A DNA stretch of 64,000 nucleotides from Candidatus Bathyarchaeota archaeon (GTDB lineage Archaea; Thermoproteota; Bathyarchaeia; Bathyarchaeales; Bathycorpusculaceae). Positions within the stretch are counted from its first letter, which is position 1. Each line of letters opens with the position of its first letter. Under the pieces are notes generated by a model. It did no database searches. It saw only the letters and a program-made list of their open reading frames with translations, and had not been told where the DNA came from. The translations under genes and the position numbers were made by a program. Shown piece by piece: positions 729 to 21,084 of this stretch. The DNA is taken from assembly GCA_963717465.1 (NCBI GenBank), contig OY970340.1, forward strand, positions 1,568,001 through 1,632,000, written 5' to 3'.

Positions 729-1814
729 CTAGCCAACCGCCTTTCTCAGGGCGTATCCAAATCTTGATTGCTGAACCCGTTTATCTACTCCAAGGGAAAC
801 TGCGTGAGCGTCTCTATCAGCAACGGCAAATGTGTATCCGAGAGTTTTCAAATTTGATATTGCTCTGGTACCTACGGTGACAACTACGCATTTCATGGCA
901 TTTTCCAATTCTACGGCATGAGGTATCCCTGCAATAATGGCAATGTCAGGGGGATCATTTAGCAAAAATTCTTTTGCTTTAATGCCAGTTAATGGGTACT
1001 CATCCAGTCCTCCAGTGATGAAATCTAATTTTACCTGGTTATCTTGCAAGGTCTTGCGTACTGTGGATGCATATGATCGTATCCTTGGCAACCCAATATT
1101 CTCATCAAGGTTTGCAATGTATCTAACCTTCGCTCGACTCCTGACTGCCACTTCATTCATTGCAAGCAGAACGTCTGAGTAGAGAAAAACGGTCTCTTTC
1201 TTTGCGTTAAGAACGCAGTCTATGCGAGCACCTTCTTTGGCCAGTTTTATGATTGAGCGGGCGACTGCTACTGGATTATCGCCAGGCTTAGGCTCAAGGT
1301 ACTCACCCCTAGCGGTTCCTCTTTTCTTTTCTAAATCGGTTGCCATTTCTAGCATTTTTTGTTGGCGATTGAATTCTTCTTGTGGGATAAGACCGAGACC
1401 TACTGCTTCTTTTAGCACCATTACGGCGCCAACAGTGTTATCGCCACTCCCACTGTGGACATTACAGCATATCGTCTTCTTGGATACGCCTGCTTCTTGT
1501 GCAACTTTCTTGAGGTCTTCTCCAATAATCATGCTAGCGCAGCTGCCGACAAGCCCTATCAAGTGTGGACTGAAAAGTTCATCAACTCTTTTGAGAACCT
1601 TTGCAAGCTTTTGCTCAGCGCCGAAGACAAAATCATCATCTGTCAACGCAGTAGTTATTACTTTCACTCCGTCTTTTTCAAGGAGCCGCGCTGGTCTAAA
1701 GCAGCATCCCGATGGACCATGTAAAACTATTACATCAGTGTTAAGATCCCTCAGAGTGTACATTGCGGCAGCAAGCGGACTTGGTCGAGGATGCATAATA
1801 ATTGACATATTCAA
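729..1814 (-). CDS. cfbD: Ni-sirohydrochlorin a,c-diamide reductive cyclase catalytic subunit (NflD/CfbD)
   Basis: N-terminus HPRPSPLAAAMYTLRDL..VIVLHGPSGCCF..ARLLEKDG; LNAKKET and GGLDEYP motifs; 361 aa; cfb context. Confidence 0.9.
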   Translation of the reverse strand: MNMSIIMHPRPSPLAAAMYTLRDLNTDVIVLHGPSGCCFRPARLLEKDGVKVITTALTDDDFVFGAEQKLAKVLKRVDELFSPHLIGLVGSCASMIIGEDLKKVAQEAGVSKKTICCNVHSGSGDNTVGAVMVLKEAVGLGLIPQEEFNRQQKMLEMATDLEKKRGTARGEYLEPKPGDNPVAVARSIIKLAKEGARIDCVLNAKKETVFLYSDVLLAMNEVAVRSRAKVRYIANLDENIGLPRIRSYASTVRKTLQDNQVKLDFITGGLDEYPLTGIKAKEFLLNDPPDIAIIAGIPHAVELENAMKCVVVTVGTRAISNLKTLGYTFAVADRDAHAVSLGVDKRVQQSRFGYALRKAVG

Positions 1815-3112
1815 CGCCGCTCCAAATACAATACTGATTTACCATTTAGCGAATTCATATCAACAATTTTCTTATTCTTTAACAATGACTTTACAGCATC
1901 TCCGAGCTCGCCAAATAGCGCTACTTGGTTAACTTGGCTGCAATTGTTTATTACATTTGCAAACTCGTGTATGTCCATAAACCCGCAGGTTGTCTTGATC
2001 GTCCCGCCGATGCATAGCGAAACAGGAGAAGAATAAACTTCAATAAAATCGTTAATGGATTGCTGCAACGACACTGGATTAATCGAGGAGCTGATATTAA
2101 CAATTCTTTTTGGAACTTTTTCGTCAAGAACCATCTTATTCGCTACGCCATCAAAACTTTCCAATTGTGCAATCTCCTTATCGCCTCCACCTAGAAAGAC
2201 TACGATGGTCAATGCAAGCAAAAGGTTCTCTACATGTTGCCTTCCAACTAATCTGGAACTGGCATACACTGGGTACTTTTCAGAGACATGTTTTCCTTTA
2301 AAATTTTGAAAGTTGTTAAATGTGGCATTGAACCTGATGCCGGGTGCACTTAACTGAACACTGTCAGCAGTGACTTCAGCTGTTTTTCCCATGGTGGAAA
2401 ATCGCTGCACATTTTCGAGAGCACAGAGCAATGGATCGTCAGCGTTAACAAGCGTAAAAGCAGATGGTCGCTTGTTTTTAATCATTGATGTCTTGGCATC
2501 GAAAGCGTGTAGAGTCTCAGCCGCAATCGGGTAATTATCGTATACGTTCTTTATGATTCCCAGATCGGCGAGGCCTGTTCCGCCGAGCGATACCTCAAAT
2601 ATGGCTGCGTCGAATGGTTTGGGGCAAAGCCTGACTGCTCGAATAATGTTTGCTGGTGTTGTGCTGACTTTTCCAGTTAGAGGCGTTACTGTGCCGCGGT
2701 TAACGTGAAAGATGCCCTCACTAGTTAGTGCAAGTATTGAGAGCCGACTCTTAATCATGTGCAGAGCAGCTAGTATAGTTTCAGTTTTTCCATAGCTTCC
2801 CGTAATTTCGACGACAGGGCACTTTAATTCTTTTTCCAGAAGATAATTGACTGCTTGATGAGCGGTAATTACACGTTTGTTTTTCAGGTCACCGAGACGT
2901 TTCCTTGGGAAGTGAATTGGGCTTATTATAAGATCAAATCCATCAAGATCTGGCAATTCTTTTTCTATTCTGAAGGTTCCTTTGAAGTTATCCGCGACTT
3001 CTTTGCTGACGGTTTTGTGTACATCTGCACATACTACCTCGTAGCCTTTCTTCACGTATTCTTCTGAAAGGGTGAGGCCGCCGTGTGTTGCATCAATCAC
3101 TAAAACTTTCAT
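1811..3112 (-). CDS. cfbE: Coenzyme F430 synthetase (Mur-ligase-like)
   Basis: VIDATHGG start, SPIH, VEITGSYGKT P-loop, FEVSLGGTG, YPIA, KTTCG; lies between cfbA and cfbD. Confidence 0.85.
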   Translation of the reverse strand: MKVLVIDATHGGLTLSEEYVKKGYEVVCADVHKTVSKEVADNFKGTFRIEKELPDLDGFDLIISPIHFPRKRLGDLKNKRVITAHQAVNYLLEKELKCPVVEITGSYGKTETILAALHMIKSRLSILALTSEGIFHVNRGTVTPLTGKVSTTPANIIRAVRLCPKPFDAAIFEVSLGGTGLADLGIIKNVYDNYPIAAETLHAFDAKTSMIKNKRPSAFTLVNADDPLLCALENVQRFSTMGKTAEVTADSVQLSAPGIRFNATFNNFQNFKGKHVSEKYPVYASSRLVGRQHVENLLLALTIVVFLGGGDKEIAQLESFDGVANKMVLDEKVPKRIVNISSSINPVSLQQSINDFIEVYSSPVSLCIGGTIKTTCGFMDIHEFANVINNCSQVNQVALFGELGDAVKSLLKNKKIVDMNSLNGKSVLYLERR

Positions 3113-3502
3113 TTAAAGCGCCTCTGCAGACGAAATGACGTCGCTGAGTATGTCAATTAGCCGTGGGTCTTTTCCGATTGGTTCAGCGTACACGAGAAGA
3201 ACCTCTTTATCCTTAGCTTTTAATGTCCTCTTTTTGGTGCCTGGCTTTAATCCTAATTCTTCAGGTATATCTTGGTCAATATGAATTCCTCTTGCCAAAA
3301 AGACGGGGACAACTATTATTTTCTCCATGCCAGCATCTATCGCTCTTTGCATAACTGTTGGAATCGACGGATCGTTGATTTGCATGAATGCTGAAGAAAC
3401 AAAATCATAGCGACTCTTAAGCTTTGAAGCGTAGAATTCAATCGTTTCTTTGTTGTATGGTTCTTTGCTTCCGTGTCCTACTAAAATTATTCCAGTTTTC
3501 AT
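3113..3502 (-). CDS. cfbA: Short class II sirohydrochlorin chelatase (CbiXS/CfbA, probably nickel-inserting from context)
   Basis: ILVGHGS and VPVFLARGIHIDQDIP motifs, YAEPIG..PRL; 129 aa. Confidence 0.8.
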   Translation of the reverse strand: MKTGIILVGHGSKEPYNKETIEFYASKLKSRYDFVSSAFMQINDPSIPTVMQRAIDAGMEKIIVVPVFLARGIHIDQDIPEELGLKPGTKKRTLKAKDKEVLLVYAEPIGKDPRLIDILSDVISSAEAL

Positions 3503-4974
3503 TAGTTTTGCTTTCCCTCCTTTAGTTTCATTAAAACGCCATCAAGCGTGTGAACATCAGATACCTCAGGGTTAAGATTATACACGTCCAGTTCCTTAGC
3601 TGTCTCAGAACCAATACATACAGTTCTCACTTTCTTTAGCTTTGAGATAAGATCATCAAGAGCGTCTTTAAGCTTGAAGTATTCAATTATATAGTGAACT
3701 GAGGATCGGCTTGTAAAAACAACCGTGTCAACGCCACTTGCGAGTTGTTTGTAAAAGCTTTCTAGACCTTGCTCGTCTCGTTCTGTTCTGTATAGCTTGA
3801 ATTCGGTGACTTTCATGTTGGCGCTGTGAAGCTTTTCGGAGAGAGAACTGTCAGCAAATGTGCTCCGCACTAATGCAACGCGACCCAACTCGCCTTTTTT
3901 ATCGATTAGTATTTCAAGGAGTCCAGTGCTGCTGAAATCCGAAGGAATAGTTTCGACGCTAATGCCTTTTGCTTCCAAAGACTTCTTTGTAGATGGCCCA
4001 ATAGCGTAGACCTTTACGCGTGACAAATAATCGAGATTTTCACGGTCAAAGTTAATCATGTCTACGGCTCTTGGGCTCATGAAAACAAGCGAATCGAATA
4101 ATTTTGATTTTAAGGCCGCAAGAAAAGCAGTTATTTCTTCTTGGTTGGCAATCAACTTTATAACGGGCGTGACGATGGGAGTGAATCCTGAAGTGAAGAA
4201 TTTTGAGGCAATAGATGTATCTAAAGAGGTTAAAAGAACCTTATTAGTACTCAGTGCTTTTGCAACTACATCGCCTATGACCACAACTACTGAATCTGCC
4301 TTTTCACTTACTTTGTCAGCAATGGTACTCACTGTTCCAAGAGTGACCGACAGGTCTTTTCCCTTTAGCGTCAGGGCCGCCACAGCCTTTTCTGGATTCA
4401 TCCCGCTGCCCATGAACGTTTGCATAATGCTCAGGAGGTTTTTCTTTGCCATCAACAATACAATTGTTCCATCGAATTTCGCATGCTTAGCAAAATAAGA
4501 TGCGTCTTCAGGCGATGCATGATGCCCCGTTAAGATCAGAATTGAAGATGAGACTTCCCGTATAGTTAAAGGGATACCAGCAAAAGTGGGTATAGCAATT
4601 GCAGAAGTTAAACCGGGAACCAACTCAAACTCGATGCCTGCATCTTTCAGCGCGAGCAGTTCTTCCCCCCCTCTGCCAAATATGAACGGATCGCCACTCT
4701 TTAACCGGACAACCGATTCGCCTTCATTCGCTTTTGTAGTTAAAGTTTTGATTATTTCTTTTTGAATAGCTGGGTCATCACCAGGCTCTTTTCCCATATA
4801 AATCAATTCAACGCCTGGTTTAGCTAATTCAATTACAGAGCTGTCAACAAGCCGATCATACACTACTACATCCGCCTCAGCTATCACCTTCGCAGCCTTG
4901 ATAGTGAGAAAATCTATACTGCCAACGCCCGCACCAACCAGATACACCTTTCCTTTTATCAGTTTAGCCTCCAA
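3502..4974 (-). CDS. cobA/hemD: Uroporphyrinogen-III C-methyltransferase / uroporphyrinogen-III synthase fusion
   Basis: N-half VYLVGAGVG, YDRLV, RLKSGDPFIFGRGGEE; C-half FMSPRAV, AIGPST, VFTSRS, CIGSETA. Confidence 0.9.
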   Translation of the reverse strand: MEAKLIKGKVYLVGAGVGSIDFLTIKAAKVIAEADVVVYDRLVDSSVIELAKPGVELIYMGKEPGDDPAIQKEIIKTLTTKANEGESVVRLKSGDPFIFGRGGEELLALKDAGIEFELVPGLTSAIAIPTFAGIPLTIREVSSSILILTGHHASPEDASYFAKHAKFDGTIVLLMAKKNLLSIMQTFMGSGMNPEKAVAALTLKGKDLSVTLGTVSTIADKVSEKADSVVVVIGDVVAKALSTNKVLLTSLDTSIASKFFTSGFTPIVTPVIKLIANQEEITAFLAALKSKLFDSLVFMSPRAVDMINFDRENLDYLSRVKVYAIGPSTKKSLEAKGISVETIPSDFSSTGLLEILIDKKGELGRVALVRSTFADSSLSEKLHSANMKVTEFKLYRTERDEQGLESFYKQLASGVDTVVFTSRSSVHYIIEYFKLKDALDDLISKLKKVRTVCIGSETAKELDVYNLNPEVSDVHTLDGVLMKLKEGKQN

Positions 4975-5873
4975 AACGTCTTAACTATCTCGTCTTCAAG
5001 CATCAGTTGAGCAGCACGCCTACCAGACAATACGGGGTCGCCGAACCCCATATCTATAGATTCTACCTTAAACTTGGCACCATCTACAGAGTAAACACCC
5101 GCGGTTATTCTCAGTCGCCCGTCTTTTGCAGTGGCTGTGCAGCCAACTGGCGAGGCGCATCCTCCACCTAAAGTTCGCAGAAATTCCCGTTCAGCCAAAA
5201 CTTCAGCTTGATATGCAGGAGAATTTATGCTTGCAACTAAATCCGTCAAGTACTGGTCAGAGGAAGAATTGCGAACAAGCACGCAGATTGCGGCTTGACC
5301 TGGGCTTGTCGGAAATGACTCTATGCTAAGTCGCTCTACAGTCTTCGGTAGCAAGCCAAGCCTCAAAAGTCCAGCTTCGGCTAATACAGCGCCATCGCAG
5401 GATTCGCCCATTACTTTCTTAAGTCTCGTGTCTACGTTGCCTCTCAGTGGAAGGATCTGGAGGTCTTTCTTGACAGCCATTAATTGTGCTTTTCGCCTCA
5501 CACTGCTAGTGGCCAATTTTGCGTGCGCTGGTAAGGCTGCGAGTGACGGGTAGCGGGCGGAGATGAAAACATCATTCGGTGATTCGCGGTCAGGAATCGC
5601 ACCTAGTTTGATACTTGGTGAAATGTTTAAGGGCACATCCTTCATGCTGTGGACTGCCAAATCAATCGTTCCGTCTATTAATGCGTTATCAACTTCTTTT
5701 TCAAAAGCGCCCTCACCAATCTTGTGCATCGGCGTGCGCGTTATGATGTCGCCTTGTGTTTTTATTGGGACAACTTCAAACTGGGCATCTGTGAACTTGG
5801 CTAGTTTATTGATTACAATGTCTGTTTGTATTAGTGCTAGTTTGCTGCCTCTTGTCCCTATTTTGATCTTCAT
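4959..5873 (-). CDS. hemC: Hydroxymethylbilane synthase
   Basis: IGTRGSKLALIQ, AVHSMKDVP, TSSVRR, LRGNVDTRL, GGGCASPVG. Confidence 0.96.
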   Translation of the reverse strand: MKIKIGTRGSKLALIQTDIVINKLAKFTDAQFEVVPIKTQGDIITRTPMHKIGEGAFEKEVDNALIDGTIDLAVHSMKDVPLNISPSIKLGAIPDRESPNDVFISARYPSLAALPAHAKLATSSVRRKAQLMAVKKDLQILPLRGNVDTRLKKVMGESCDGAVLAEAGLLRLGLLPKTVERLSIESFPTSPGQAAICVLVRNSSSDQYLTDLVASINSPAYQAEVLAEREFLRTLGGGCASPVGCTATAKDGRLRITAGVYSVDGAKFKVESIDMGFGDPVLSGRRAAQLMLEDEIVKTFWRLN

Positions 5874-12966: not shown

Positions 12967-13467
12967 TTAACCTTTCTCGGCAAGGTTTGTATTCGGTTTT
13001 TGATGTTTTTTGCCTGTCAGGTCTTTCAAGTCGATCTTGCCTATGCTCGTTGATGCGAGTTTTTCTGGTTTAACTTTTGCCAGTTTATCTTCTGGGTTGG
13101 CAGAGAGCTGCCTAACTAACACTTCTAGCGCATGCTGCTTCTCCCTGAGGTCATCAACCTGGAAATACTCTCCTGAAAAATGCACTGATACGTAGGCATA
13201 GTCACACTCGTTCGTTACACCGTAATCCAGTATCGCTTGTCCCCAAACTTTGTTGTTTGATCTTAAATAGGCTAGTTTTTTGCCTTCAGGTGCACAGTGG
13301 AAGTATAGACAATTCTTTGCTTCATCATAGCCATGGCTTAATGAAACCAGATACGGCTCGTCATCCACGCAGAGGGCAACAGTAACATACTTGGTACTTT
13401 TTAGCACCTGTCGTAATTCATTTTGATCCGTGATTTCCCTATCTTTACGCCGAACATGAAAAGACAT
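12967..13467 (-). CDS. Pyridoxamine 5'-phosphate oxidase-like flavin-binding protein (NimA/NimC-like)
   Basis: RRKDREI, PYLVSLSHGY, LYFHCAPEGKKL, YVSV, LTGK. Confidence 0.85.
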   Translation of the reverse strand: MSFHVRRKDREITDQNELRQVLKSTKYVTVALCVDDEPYLVSLSHGYDEAKNCLYFHCAPEGKKLAYLRSNNKVWGQAILDYGVTNECDYAYVSVHFSGEYFQVDDLREKQHALEVLVRQLSANPEDKLAKVKPEKLASTSIGKIDLKDLTGKKHQKPNTNLAEKG

Positions 13468-13592: not shown

Positions 13593-15681
13593 TTATTTGT
13601 CGATTGAAATTCTGCTTGTGCCTGCTTCTTTCTCTAGAATTACAACGTGTTCAGCTTTACTTGCGAAGGATTCACTGTGCGTTACGGCAATGATTTGCTC
13701 AATTGCTTTGAATCGGGCTATTGCCTCAGCTAAATGTTCGATGCTGCCGTCTTCATTTCCCAAGTTTTCCGTAGGCTCATCTAGTACAAGCATGCTTAAT
13801 CCGTGCCCAGTTCTTGATTGCATGATGAGTTGTCCTAAACCTAATCGATAAGCGAACGCAAGTAATGTTCGCTCGCCGCCAGAAAGATTTGCAACCTCAC
13901 GATTTACTCCAGATTCGCTTTTGACATACGGCGTATATGTATCGTCGATAATTACGTTCAAAAATGCGGTTTCGCTGCCTACTAAACCATCTAAAACCTG
14001 TTGAACGAAACTTCGCAAAACACCCACGAACTCGCTTCGCAGCAAAGGCTGAACACTCCGATAAGCATCCCGAACAGCGCCTAAAACCTCAATCGTTTTA
14101 CGAATTTTCTCGACGCGCTCAACCTTTTGCATAGAAACATCAATTCGCTCTTTCAAAATATCCAAACGTTCAAAAAGATCAGCTTTGCGATTTTCCTTAG
14201 TGCGCATGTCAGAATCAACCTGATAGTACTGCTTGAAAAGCTGCTCTCTGCGGGCTTTGGCTGATTCAAGCTCTGATAAATTGAACCTGCTAATTTCAAG
14301 GTTCACTAGTTCAAGTTGATTTTGAAGTTCAGCTTCTAACTTTTGCTTGCTCTCAAACTCGCTTGAAATATTGCCCATATTTAGTTCTTCTTCAGAAATA
14401 CGCGCTTTAAGATCGTCAGCTCTGGTAACGCAGTTTTGCAGGTTAGAATATGCTTCAGATGCAATTTTTTTGCTTTTCTTAAGTTCCTCAATTTCAACTT
14501 GCAACTGTTTAATGATTTTTTCTCGTTCACAATTCTCATGTTCAATGCGCGTAAGTAGATTAGTCTTGTATTCACCATCTAATGGTTGCACGCAAAGGGG
14601 ACACTTGTTCTCCTGCGACAACGAAATAGTTCTTTTTTGGTCGGTCTGCAAGCTCCGTAGAAGTTGCTTCTTGCTCAGCTTTTATAGTGCTGATTTTATC
14701 GTCAAAAGATGCCAGAAAAGAACCTAATGCTTCAAAAGGCTGACTTACAGGTAATCCTGCTTGTTCAAGTTTACTTAAACACAATTTAGCTTGGATATCA
14801 ATAGAGTTTTGGCGCTGCAGCAAATTGTCAAGAATAGTTTTTTTACCCTCAAGTCTGTCATTCAATGAAGCAAGTGCATCCTTAAGGTTTAGCAAGTTAG
14901 CGTTTATTCTAGCTTCTTTTCGCTTCAACTCTTCGATTGCCACTTTTTTCTCTTCCAATCGCTTAAGCGTCTGATCAGCATCAGCCAGCACTTTTTTGGC
15001 AATAGCAAGTTTCTGGGTTAAACCTTCAAGATCCATTTCTAAAAGTGCAAATTCTTCACTTGCCCTATTGTATTCAGCGCTGAGTTTTTCCAATCCAGTA
15101 ACATCTGAATCTTTTTCGTAAATTCTCTTCTCGTTATCATAATCTCGTTGATACTGTGCGATGTTGCTCCATGCAGATTCATAATCTGACAGGCCGAACA
15201 ATTCGTCTAAGCGTTTTTGCCTATCGCGTGGTGCTAAATCTAAGAGCTCTTTTAGATGCTCCTGCCTGAACCATACTATTTCACGGTATAGATCTTTATC
15301 CAGACCTGTAATTGCCTTAAACTGTTCAGCAATTGCATCGCTCTTCATACTTGCAATGAGCGTTTCCTCTTCAAACAGTTTAAGCTCCTCAAAATTCTGG
15401 GTTACGCTTTTTCCGCGTCTTTTTAACCCCCGTATTAACTTGTAAGTTTTACCGCTCTGAGTAAATTGAACTGTTACCTTTCCTGAATCTGCTCCTTCGC
15501 GAAGCAGATATTCGAAGCTTCGGCCGATTGAATCGCCGAATAAACCAAAATCCAAGGCATATAAGACACTGGATTTTCCGCAACCCAAACCGCCTACAAG
15601 ACAGTTAAATCCTCTGGTGAATGGCACCGTTGATTTAACGTGAGACCGCAGGTTCTCAAGCTGGACTATTTCAATTTTCAC
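13593..15681 (-). CDS. rad50: DNA double-strand break repair ATPase Rad50, split by a one-base frameshift near 14659
   Basis: Walker A GGLGCGKSS and coiled coil in 14572-15681; zinc hook CPLC, LSGGE, LDEPT and VTH in 13593-14651. Removing one base joins ...EATS to RSLQTDQK. Confidence 0.9.
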
Positions 15682-17977: not shown

Positions 17978-19384
17978 ATGTTTATGCTCAAATGCATTCG
18001 ATGTGGATCAAAATTTCCAGATAAAACATTGAAAAGTAGGTGCACAAAATGTTCTGGAACACTTGAATACAATCCAGACCATCCAGTCCAAGGTAAAATT
18101 AGATTTTCGGGTCCAATTGGTTTTTGGAGGTACAGGCAGATGCTTCCTCCAGTTCAGCACATTATAAGTTTAGGAGAAGGCGGAACACCGCTGCTTAAGG
18201 CTGAAAGGCTCTCAAAAGAAATCGGATTAAAAGAGCTTTACTTAAAAGATGAAACGCGAAATCCGACACACTCATATAGAGACCGAGCAGCTGCTTTTTT
18301 AACGTCCAATGCGGTTGACTTAGGATGCAAGGCATTAGTTAGCGCATCTAATGGAAATATGGGTGCATCGATAGCGGCTTATTCTGCCAAGGCAGGCGTG
18401 ATCTGCCATGTTCTAGTGCCTAAGCTAGTTGATGTAGGCAAGCTTGCTCAAATGATTGCTTACGACGCAGTTATCGAGGAATACGGCGACATAGTTGACG
18501 ACTCAATACGTAAAGCTGAAGCATTAGCTAAGGAAACAGGATGGTATCAAGCAACCGCAGAACTTAACCCCTACGTTGTTGAAGCACAGAAAACAATTTC
18601 ATACGAAATTTACGAACAGTTCGGCGTTCCCGAGTTCGTCTTGGTTTCGATGGGAAGCGGTGGAACAATTTATTCTCTTTGGAAGGGGTTCAAGGAGCTA
18701 AAACATCTTGGAATAACAAAATCACTTCCCAGAATGGTGGGAATTCAAACTGAAAGTTGTGCTTCAATAGTTGACACACTTACAGGTAACAATTTAACCA
18801 CGATACAAAAATCAGGTAATCCTTCAACTCATGCGCTTGCCATACTAGTGGGTGAACCACTTCAAAGCGACTTGGCAGTAAAAGCATTAACAGAATCCAA
18901 AGGGTTGGCGTTAACAGTTTCTGATGCTGAAATGCTTGATGCCGAATTACAAATTGCAAAATATGAAGGGGTATTCGCTGAGCCAGCAAGTTCCGCAACT
19001 GTAGCAGCGCTTGAAAAGCTTGTAAACAGAAAAGAGATTTCTAGTAATAACAGTGTCGCGTGTATTATTACCGGGAGTGGACTGAAGGCGACTGATGTTT
19101 TGCAAGCGTTAACTAAAAAACAAAAAACCGCTGGGTTAAGCTTGGAGATAAGTACTAAGGCGAAAATCCTCAAAATTTTAAACGAAAAAGACACCTACGG
19201 TTACGATTTATGGAAGCTGCTTGGAAAAATCATGACTCGCGGAGCAATTTATCAGCATTTGAATGAGTTGTCAGAAAAAGGCTTAATCGTCGGCTATGAT
19301 GAAAAAGGCAAAAAATTCTTTAGGATAACGCAGCATGGAAAAAGGGCTTTGTCTGCTTTTGATGACTTGAAATTCTTGATGTAG
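17978..19384 (+). CDS. Threonine-synthase-like protein with C-terminal PadR-like winged HTH; PLP lysine position is Arg
   Basis: SLGEGGTPL, NPTHSYRDR, EPASS, ITGSGLK; C-terminus TYGYDLWK...RGAIYQHLNELSEKGLI...FRITQHG. Confidence 0.85.
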   Translation: MFMLKCIRCGSKFPDKTLKSRCTKCSGTLEYNPDHPVQGKIRFSGPIGFWRYRQMLPPVQHIISLGEGGTPLLKAERLSKEIGLKELYLKDETRNPTHSYRDRAAAFLTSNAVDLGCKALVSASNGNMGASIAAYSAKAGVICHVLVPKLVDVGKLAQMIAYDAVIEEYGDIVDDSIRKAEALAKETGWYQATAELNPYVVEAQKTISYEIYEQFGVPEFVLVSMGSGGTIYSLWKGFKELKHLGITKSLPRMVGIQTESCASIVDTLTGNNLTTIQKSGNPSTHALAILVGEPLQSDLAVKALTESKGLALTVSDAEMLDAELQIAKYEGVFAEPASSATVAALEKLVNRKEISSNNSVACIITGSGLKATDVLQALTKKQKTAGLSLEISTKAKILKILNEKDTYGYDLWKLLGKIMTRGAIYQHLNELSEKGLIVGYDEKGKKFFRITQHGKRALSAFDDLKFLM

Positions 19385-19416
19385 TTTCTACCAAAAATAC
19401 TTAAATATAGTTGCTA

Positions 19417-19440
19417 ATAGTATAGTAATAACTATACTAT
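19417..19440. promoter_or_regulatory. 10-4-10 inverted repeat downstream of a TATA box, upstream of the ECF S-component gene (candidate operator)
   Basis: ATAGTATAGT-AATA-ACTATACTAT; TTAAATA at about 19401-19407. Confidence 0.6.
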
Positions 19441-19458: not shown

Positions 19459-20004
19459 ATGAATAAAACAAACATGAAACAGGCGTCTAACAAACTTGAT
19501 CGCCAAAAGCACGTAACAGTAACCCTTGCAAGAACAAGCATCATGACGGCGCTAGTATTTGTTGCTACGTATATAGTGCAAGTTTATGTTCCAGCAACCC
19601 GAGGGTACTTGAATTTTGGTGATATCATGGTTTTCGTCAGCGCGCTAACTTTCGGTCCAGCGGTTGGCGGTTTTGCTGGTGGCGTTGGATCGGCATTGTC
19701 AGACGCGGTTTCAGGTTATGGATATTTTGCACCTTTTACGTTGATAATTAAAGGTTTGGAAGGGTTAATTGCAGGATTAATATCCAACCGTAAACAAGTT
19801 TGGCGAGACATAATCGCCGTGTCAGTGGCTGGAACAGTAATGGTGGTGGGATATTTCCTAGCCGAGTTTTTCCCGCTCCAAATCGGATATGCAGCTGTAG
19901 TGGAGATTCCAATCAATATCCTTCAGATAGTTGTAGGAGCCCTTGTAGGTGTCCCTATTGCTTTGGTGATTCGCACAAGATTGCCTGAAACATGGTTGAA
20001 ATAA
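19459..20004 (+). CDS. ECF transporter S component
   Basis: ALVFVAT, GYLNFGD, GVGSALSD, APFTLIIKG; about 5-6 TM. Confidence 0.88.
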   Translation: MNKTNMKQASNKLDRQKHVTVTLARTSIMTALVFVATYIVQVYVPATRGYLNFGDIMVFVSALTFGPAVGGFAGGVGSALSDAVSGYGYFAPFTLIIKGLEGLIAGLISNRKQVWRDIIAVSVAGTVMVVGYFLAEFFPLQIGYAAVVEIPINILQIVVGALVGVPIALVIRTRLPETWLK

Positions 20005-20079
20005 AGCAAGAATGAATTGCAGATAATATTATTGCTTAATAGCTTGATAGAGAGACTAGCTAAATGAGGAAAAGATGAG

Positions 20080-21084
20080 ATGAAACTGCCGCCTGGAAAA
20101 ATACCCGTTGATATTCTGAAAGATGTAGTTTTTAAGAATTTAGGAGCTGAACGCAAAGAAGTTACGCTTGGCCCCTCAGCTGGAATTGACGGAGCAGTCT
20201 TAGATTTCGGCAGCAAAAACGCTATTATCTCATTGGATCCTATAACTGGCGCTGTTGAACGCATTGGGTGGGAAGCCATTAATATTAACGCTAATGATGT
20301 AGCAACGTTCGGGGTGGAGCCAGCCTTCTTCTTTTCGTGCATTATGCTGCCAGAGAATGCTGACAGTTCCATGGTTCAAACTATAAGTACTCAAATGGGT
20401 TCTGCAGCGAAGAATTTGGGCATCGCCATTGTAGGGGGACATTGCGAATCTACTCCCGGCTTAACAAGCCCTATAGTGGTTGGCTGCATTATGGGCTTAA
20501 CAGAGAAGGGCAAATACGTAACAGCGGCAGGAGCAAAGCCTGGAGACAAACTTATACTGACAAAGAGCGCTGGGATTGAGGGCACGGCAATATTAGCTTC
20601 TGACAGAGAAGCCCAATTAAAAAAAATCTTGAATCCAACGATGCTTGAGAGTGCAAAAGATTTTTACAAGCAAATAAGCGTAGTAAAAGACGCGTTAACC
20701 GCTTATGGGGCAGGTGGAGTGCATGCGATGCATGATCCAACTGAAGGTGGAATCCTTAACGGCATACATGAATTATGCGATGCTGCGGGTTTGGGCGTAA
20801 AGGTTTTCTCAGAAAAAATCGTTGTTGAACCCGAAACAGCAAGAATCTGTAGGTTCTTTGAAATTGATCCACTTCAACTTATCAGTTCTGGCGCGTTGTT
20901 GATTGCGGTTGAGGCTGAATCGGCAAACAAAGTAATTGAAAGTTTATTCCAGCAACACATTTATGCTTCAATAATAGGTGAATTCAACAAAAACGTGGAT
21001 AAACGGGTACTGGTTCATGGAAACGATGTGGATATGCTTCCGCGACCATTGTCAGACCATTTATGGATTGCTTTAACGAGATAA
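20080..21084 (+). CDS. AIR synthase/PurM-like family protein (HypE-related, lacks the C-terminal PRxC)
   Basis: DPIT, NANDVA, IVGGH, MHDPTEGG, DPLQLISSG. Confidence 0.8.
   Translation: MKLPPGKIPVDILKDVVFKNLGAERKEVTLGPSAGIDGAVLDFGSKNAIISLDPITGAVERIGWEAININANDVATFGVEPAFFFSCIMLPENADSSMVQTISTQMGSAAKNLGIAIVGGHCESTPGLTSPIVVGCIMGLTEKGKYVTAAGAKPGDKLILTKSAGIEGTAILASDREAQLKKILNPTMLESAKDFYKQISVVKDALTAYGAGGVHAMHDPTEGGILNGIHELCDAAGLGVKVFSEKIVVEPETARICRFFEIDPLQLISSGALLIAVEAESANKVIESLFQQHIYASIIGEFNKNVDKRVLVHGNDVDMLPRPLSDHLWIALTR

Follow-up and report, generated by a model that had tools for sequence, protein, structure and literature searches.

A predicted vitamin B6 repressor of Bathyarchaeia built on a threonine synthase fold

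Results

Architecture of the locus

The locus lies in a 64,000-nt stretch of archaeal DNA (the window, by which the whole stretch analyzed is meant) and comprises, all on the forward strand, a gene for a 468-residue protein, termed the regulator here (17978-19384), a gene for an ECF transporter S component (19459-20004), and a gene for an AIR-synthase-fold protein (20080-21084). Translation of the regulator may actually begin at the second ATG (17984). A predicted operator, a 22-bp palindrome (19418-19439), ends 19 nt before the start codon of the S gene.

From N- to C-terminus, the regulator consists of a zinc-ribbon-like segment, a threonine-synthase-fold (PLP fold type II) domain, and a PadR-like winged helix-turn-helix (wHTH; 19166-19354). 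In Pfam, the PALP family (PF00291) covered residues 63-366 (E 1.6e-70), and PadR (PF03551) matched residues 397-459 above its gathering score (40.5 bits vs a cut-off of 27), which bore out the C-terminal PadR-like fusion proposed in the original prediction; no GntR domain was matched in the regulator. The best NCBIfam model was PRK05638 (NF004170, 'threonine synthase'), which covered residues 3-461 but fell short of its cut-off (396 vs 421 bits), and the cut-off of TIGR00260 was passed (195.9 > 167.1). An AlphaFold model based on a 144-sequence alignment (pLDDT 92.3) featured a complete fold-type II domain and a wHTH joined via a low-confidence linker (residues 378-388). Its top Foldseek matches were threonine synthases, with TM scores of 0.83-0.88 by target and 34-39% identity. 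Conservation was examined in the best 120 of 2,243 matches, the listed homologues below, and in these the YGYDLW and YQHL blocks of the wHTH were near-invariant. The zinc-ribbon-like CxxC...CxxC motif (C6, C9, C22, and C25; 17993-18052) had each Cys in 117-118 of the 120, the remainder being gaps; not noted in the original prediction, it also occurs in the genome's own thrC and is inherited from archaeal-type thrC.

Loss of the Schiff-base lysine and remodeling of the active site

It had been predicted that the lysine motif of threonine synthase reads NPTHSYRDR in this protein, with an AGA codon at 18278-18280, and that ASNGN stands in place of ASTGN. Codons 18260-18286 read exactly so, as did ASNGN at 18344-18358 (ASNGNM at 18344-18361). 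In the alignment with Thermus thermophilus threonine synthase (TS; 1UIM), R101 of the regulator corresponded to K61, the Schiff-base Lys position, and within the second motif T85 and T88 were changed to N125 and M128, with N87 kept as N127. The residues R101, N125, N127, E195, E335, and T365 were each present in 120/120 listed homologues. When codon 101 was examined in 103 distinct loci, Arg was found in 98, with all six Arg codons in use, and Lys (AAG) in the remaining five. A sequencing error at codon 101 was ruled out, since R101 and N125 recur in all 120 homologues and the Arg is spelled by all six codons.

The change extended to the substrate side of the pocket. The TS residues T88, N154, S155, R160, and N188, which we take to be the contacts of the phosphohomoserine phosphate, aligned with M128, A194, E195, V200, and S227. 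Three of these lie in a remodeled segment at 18557-18577, where A194 was found in 118, E195 in 120, and V200 in 108 of the 120 listed homologues, the other 12 having Ala. The residues F60, N87, the glycine loop, E287, and T317 of TS, presumed to hold the PLP ring and phosphate (N87 presumably as the contact of the PLP 3'-O), aligned with Y100, N127, GSGGT, E335, and T365. The GSGGT loop (18653-18667) corresponds in position to the TS loop for the PLP phosphate (GNAGN), and its G226, G228, and G229 were present in 120/120 listed homologues. With the Schiff-base Lys and the substrate-phosphate residues gone and the pocket for the PLP ring and phosphate retained, the regulator is, as judged from these alignments, a predicted pseudoenzyme.

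Distribution of the family and the lysine-bearing subclade

The Lys-to-Arg exchange, whose conservation the original prediction had singled out for checking, held throughout the close homologues (Arg in 120/120) but proved to be a trait of this clade only, the wider family being varied and one subclade carrying Lys. In a survey of the best 150 cluster representatives, 147 of them scorable, the Schiff-base Lys was found in 2/71 wHTH-fused vs 72/76 unfused representatives. Position 101 of the 71 fused proteins was occupied by L (18), I (15), R (14), V (6), T (5), M (4), and others, F among them, and D102 (71), E335 (70), T365 (70), and N/D127 (71) were kept. The family trait is thus the loss of Lys rather than Arg as such, because Lys is found in only two fused representatives and the residue is otherwise varied.

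The Lys-bearing Bathyarchaeia subclade (the five AAG loci) has ATNGNH or ASNGNH at the second motif and still lacks T88 and R160. In a FastTree phylogeny (69 rows, Lys column removed, arbitrary root), it was nested among Arg forms with local supports of 0.99, for which reason it probably represents a reversion from Arg.

The named close relatives of the regulator belong to Bathyarchaeia, and the cultured Thermococcus chitonophagus has a homologue that carries this Arg motif. ESM Atlas clusters with both domains were labeled Bathyarchaeota, Nitrososphaerota, and Thorarchaeota, and a 1,978-member cluster of the family carries the name 'threonine synthase family protein'. Some relatives exceeded the PRK05638 cut-off; the seven such loci that were inspected have Arg together with an HTH-like block at the C-terminus, so PRK05638 seems to model the regulator family under an enzyme name. 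The family is real, conserved, and misannotated.

The enzyme name of that closest NCBIfam model, the conservation of K155 and K205 in regulator homologues, and the existence of the Lys-bearing subclade would fit a protein that is still an enzyme, either a threonine synthase or a catalyst of a PLP reaction via another Lys, and possibly bifunctional like RbkR. We regard this as barely conceivable: across the family, the Lys position tolerates L, I, V, T, M, F, and further residues; active TS has both K155 and K205 as well, at non-Schiff-base positions; and the Lys subclade is nested among Arg forms without T88 and R160. The genome moreover has the separate, intact thrC for which the original prediction had suggested looking (C1:429908-431164). 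This gene encodes NPTGSFKDR and ASTGNT and lies in a thrB-thrC-hom-aspartokinase cluster (names read off the sequences). Two related genes were noted on the same contig, a second threonine-synthase-like gene with Lys (NPTGTQKDR) that is split into two ORFs (G000:C1:607125-608260) and a cysteate-synthase-like gene (C1:1684221-1685393; name read off the sequence).

The downstream ECF S component and AIR-synthase-fold genes

The S component (19459-20004), the main predicted target of the regulator, matched PF07155 with 127 bits. Its best PDB match and closest solved relative was HmpT/PdxU2 (4HZU chain S, E 1.6e-13), with RibU at E 9e-4. Among the six conserved pocket residues of HmpT, Y120, N140, and Q143 were identical and E41 was kept as Asp (D55), whereas H84 was replaced by K and Q87 by E; S136 was also changed to E. 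These changes recurred across loci (K at H84 in 88/94 and E at Q87 in 93/94). According to PMC4860826, HmpT was first assigned to hydroxymethylpyrimidine (HMP), and the ligand extracted from the Lactobacillus brevis protein (4HZU) was pyridoxamine. The S component is predicted to be an importer of a B6 vitamer. EcfT genes are present in this genome.

The AIR-synthase-fold protein (20080-21084; PF00586 and PF02769) belongs to the PurM/ThiL/HypE/SelD superfamily and scored below the NCBIfam cut-offs of HypE, ThiL, SelD, and PurM. Its gene is probably co-transcribed with the S gene. Across loci it comes after the S gene or pdxST, and in one locus (L121) before pdxST. The protein was found in 168/201 genomes of the class sample, where it accompanies the ECF S gene, pdxST, or the regulator. 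It may be regarded as a candidate B6 vitamer kinase, because a search of this genome (88% complete) found no pdxS, PF08543 is matched above the cut-off only by a ThiDN-like fusion of the thiamine cluster, and the AIR-synthase-fold gene keeps company with ECF S and pdxST. A pyridoxamine 5'-phosphate oxidase-like gene (PF12900, Nim-like; window 12967-13467, reverse strand) was observed 4.5 kb upstream of the regulator, with no operator near, and is probably unrelated to the system.

The arrangement of regulator and S gene is conserved. An ECF S gene lay within 1.5 kb 3' of the regulator in 94 of the 98 loci with at least 800 nt of flank (110 fetched minus seven duplicates and five short ones). 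Of the four exceptions, three have pdxS-pdxT and then the AIR-synthase-fold gene where the S gene would be, behind an operator with 0 mismatches.

The predicted operator

The palindrome at 19418-19439, detected by pattern and matrix scans, had one mismatch to the cross-locus consensus TAGTAWAGYT-NN-ARCTWTACTA, with a further half-site immediately 5'. Within the 74-nt gap between regulator and S gene, a perfect 10-bp inverted repeat was found (19417-19426/19431-19440), which falls in the region that the original prediction had proposed for EMSA. This repeat was the only match in the 3.05-Mb genome at up to three mismatches, and a matrix scan of the genome gave a single strong site, at 19418 (29.9 bits; the next scored 12.3). 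Just upstream, at 19392-19408, an A-rich stretch and the sequence CTTAAATAT are taken, by likeness to the consensus, as putative BRE-like and TATA-like elements of the S-gene promoter. In 73 aligned sites, a T/A-rich stretch preceded by an A-rich one likewise lay directly 5' of the operator, and the ATG was usually within about 30 nt; by these features the operator is predicted to cover the TATA-to-start region. A sigma-70 promoter scan, with a model unsuited to an archaeon, returned chance-level counts.

In 102/102 loci, the 200 nt 5' of the regulator contained no site suggestive of autoregulation (best 6 mismatches), and the genome's own thiC/thiDN cluster had no strong operator site. A match with three mismatches at window 2771-2792 was dismissed as chance, being located within cfbE with a score of 9.9 bits. 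That gene is one of a set of coenzyme F430 genes on the reverse strand (window 729-5873), in which cfbD (448 bits > 268) and cfbA (136 > 120) exceeded their cut-offs and cfbE stayed below (241 < 250), and which is accompanied by hemC and a cobA/hemD fusion. With an MCR alpha-subunit match in the same genome (E 1.9e-59; loci listed: window 729-5873, reverse strand, and G000:C1:1664367-1664747), the source genome is mcr/acr-bearing and Bathyarchaeia-like. Elsewhere in the window, adjoining mre11, Rad50 appears as two overlapping ORFs (14572-15681 and 13593-14651, reverse strand), which may reflect a frameshift, an assembly error, or a true split.

Operator occurrence across loci and genomes

At up to four mismatches, 85/94 loci had the operator no more than 300 nt from the S gene, compared with 0/94 for a reversed-pattern control. 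Of the other nine loci, five have the operator further upstream, three have it clipped by the search window but present, and one is degenerate. The pattern was derived from the same loci that were counted here, and the compared genomes are kin rather than independent samples; the distant pdxS sites and the regulator-less control described next are independent of the derivation.

The class sample of 201 genomes contained 29 with pdxS over the cut-off, 61 with a close regulator (E < 1e-130), and four with both. All four genomes with both the regulator clade and pdxS carried a site immediately upstream of pdxS and remote from the regulator, with two mismatches in three genomes and four in the fourth (G151); the remaining 25 pdxS loci showed none at up to four mismatches in the corresponding position. 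Together with the three loci in which pdxST replaces the S gene, the operator preceded pdxST in 7/7 co-occurrences of regulator clade and pdxS. Sites with at most two mismatches occurred in 33/61 regulator genomes (21/24 within the order) vs 11/140 others, and the reversed control gave 13/201.

A comparison within the family of the source genome (25 loci, three of them left out for having no S gene directly before the AIR-synthase-fold gene) pointed the same way. The operator was present in 8/8 genomes with the regulator nearby. In 14 relatives the regulator was not found, with matches at the level of thrC only; all 14 keep the S and AIR-synthase-fold genes, and 13 lack the operator at up to four mismatches, the fourteenth having a site with three. 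In several of these genomes the usual flanking gene of the regulator directly adjoins the S gene, which suggests that the regulator was deleted there.

Further genes stand behind the operator. Near-perfect sites precede a gene for a membrane protein of about 300 residues with an ECF S-like C-terminus, at G145:C32:6756 and in five further loci, and in genome G145 a perfect site is followed by an S-like gene and then a ThiL-like gene. A second ECF S gene and an amidohydrolase-like gene lie behind the same operator in 11 loci. Sites were also found before apparently unrelated genes in four loci.

Beyond the class, 16 loci of regulator-family genes in other classes of the phylum were inspected by eye. 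An ECF S gene was downstream in eight and an AIR-synthase-fold gene upstream in one, and neither was within 1.5 kb in seven. A distant clade in which L, M, or I replaces the Lys stands head-to-head with pdxST in 5/6 pdxS loci of one family (f20), the wHTH being confirmed in the three fetched whole, and head-to-head with ECF S and AIR-synthase-fold genes in two more loci (L245 and L246). The 22-bp palindrome was not found at the head-to-head pdxS promoters of this clade.

The threonine pathway

Descent from thrC raises the possibility of a threonine or phosphohomoserine sensor acting on threonine biosynthesis, all the more as an intact thrC stands head-to-head upstream of the regulator in seven loci. 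No operator was found between the two genes in any of these seven (best 6-8 mismatches) or before the genome's own thrC (best 6 mismatches), and a threonine regulon was rejected on these grounds. Considering also the loss of the substrate-phosphate residues, a sensor of this kind is highly improbable, and the head-to-head layout can be read as a relic of duplication.

Discussion

We consider it likely, from comparative sequence analysis and modeling, that the regulator arose from a duplicated archaeal threonine synthase and acts as a one-component repressor in vitamin B6 homeostasis. The central idea of the original prediction, a one-component transcription factor whose sensor domain is a repurposed enzyme scaffold, was upheld by the conserved fusion, the loss of catalytic and substrate residues, the presence of an intact thrC elsewhere, and a palindrome tied to the gene. 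Its list of ligands was narrowed. A B6 vitamer is strongly favored because the operator precedes HmpT-like ECF S genes and pdxST, whereas threonine and phosphohomoserine are disfavored because the substrate-phosphate residues are gone and neither the genome's thrC nor the seven head-to-head copies have an operator. For PLP as the effector we put the chances at roughly even; PMP or PNP would have about half that weight, and some other ligand takes up the rest.

In the proposed mechanism, a dimer of the regulator would bind a phosphorylated B6 vitamer non-covalently, and binding would place its two wHTH domains on the 22-bp palindrome, which lies at the TATA box or directly beyond it. With plentiful B6 the regulator would thus block initiation, and at low B6 the genes would be released. 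The repressed targets would be genes of B6 uptake and synthesis; in this genome, where pdxS was not found, the operon at 19459-21084 is the only predicted one. We favor repression on two grounds: the site overlies the region of initiation, and the operon has outlasted the loss of both the regulator and its site. The opposite polarity, an apo protein that activates by recruiting TFB/TBP with B6 as an anti-activator, has precedent in bacterial PdxR, which activates (PMC5320631), and in archaeal RbkR, which was proposed to do so (PMC5397151). For the present regulator it is very unlikely, given that the site overlaps or follows the TATA-like box, mostly within about 30 nt of an ATG, and does not stand upstream of the BRE, and that regulator-less genomes keep the S and AIR-synthase-fold genes without the site, as would fit the loss of a repressor.

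Another reading leaves regulator and operator as they are and changes the effector. The effector of GabR is a PLP-amino acid external aldimine, and such an adduct, or HMP or HMP-P, imported by the S component, might be what is sensed here. The pocket of the S component differs from that of HmpT, E195 and N125, both new and invariant, line the former substrate site, a ThiL-like gene stands behind the perfect site in G145, and HmpT itself was first linked to HMP (PMC4860826). We nevertheless judge this reading unlikely, as the operator precedes pdxST in all seven co-occurrences, the genome's own thiC/thiDN cluster is without a strong site, and the conserved part of the regulator is the PLP pocket.

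The repressor model could be extended to an ancient, archaea-wide B6 regulon in which a fold-type II pseudoenzyme reads a phosphorylated vitamer without a Schiff base, the lineage that regained Lys may bind PLP covalently, and the missing archaeal B6 kinase, not of the PdxK kind, is encoded by the AIR-synthase-fold target. We offer this as a tentative extension, to which we would give somewhat less than an even chance. The available text of a 2023 survey of the PLP pathway names bacterial regulators alone and allows that an uncharacterized B6 kinase may exist (PMC9997740). The operator itself offers a route to archaeal genes of B6 transport and salvage, including the candidate new kinase.

No description of the regulator family was found in the literature searched, subscription journals, RegPrecise, and supplements being outside its coverage, and the threonine synthase passages available from a 2026 GapMind preprint make no mention of a regulator paralogue. 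The annotation as 'threonine synthase' inflates threonine-pathway calls in archaeal genomes. The regulator shares the fold-type II PALP fold with ThrC (TIGR00260; 1UIM, 2ZSJ, and 6NMX) and differs from it in the extra wHTH and in the replacement of all of K61, T85, T88, N154, S155, R160, and N188, and PRK05638 is the model that covers the entire fusion.

The closest functional parallel is with the bacterial MocR regulators, which are absent from Archaea according to PMC5320631. In that text the PdxR regulon consists of pdxST, B6 salvage genes, and the ECF-type pdxU, and apo-PdxR activates pdxST. Both systems fuse a wHTH to an enzyme-derived PLP domain, and the predicted regulon of the archaeal protein likewise holds pdxST and B6 transport genes. 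In MocR/PdxR proteins, however, the wHTH is N-terminal and of the GntR type and the PLP domain is aminotransferase-like with fold type I, whereas the regulator has a C-terminal PadR-like wHTH and fold type II. It further differs in lacking the Schiff-base Lys, in having one 22-bp palindrome at the start site, and in being a predicted repressor. If the proposal is true, the family fills the gap of an archaeal B6 regulator by convergent design on a different PLP fold.

Among archaeal vitamin regulators there is likewise the thiamine regulator ThiR (named in PMC10746257). It derives from ThiN and resembles the present protein in joining a wHTH to an enzyme fold, differing in the vitamin and in the fold. 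RbkR (PMC5397151) is an archaeal vitamin regulator that also combines a wHTH with an enzyme fold and has palindromes before biosynthesis and ECF S genes; it differs in its riboflavin kinase fold and vitamin, in staying catalytic, in its N-terminal wHTH, and in being a proposed activator. Set beside these systems, the protein described here appears to be an enzyme-derived vitamin regulator on a new scaffold and is most likely the archaeal vitamin B6 repressor.
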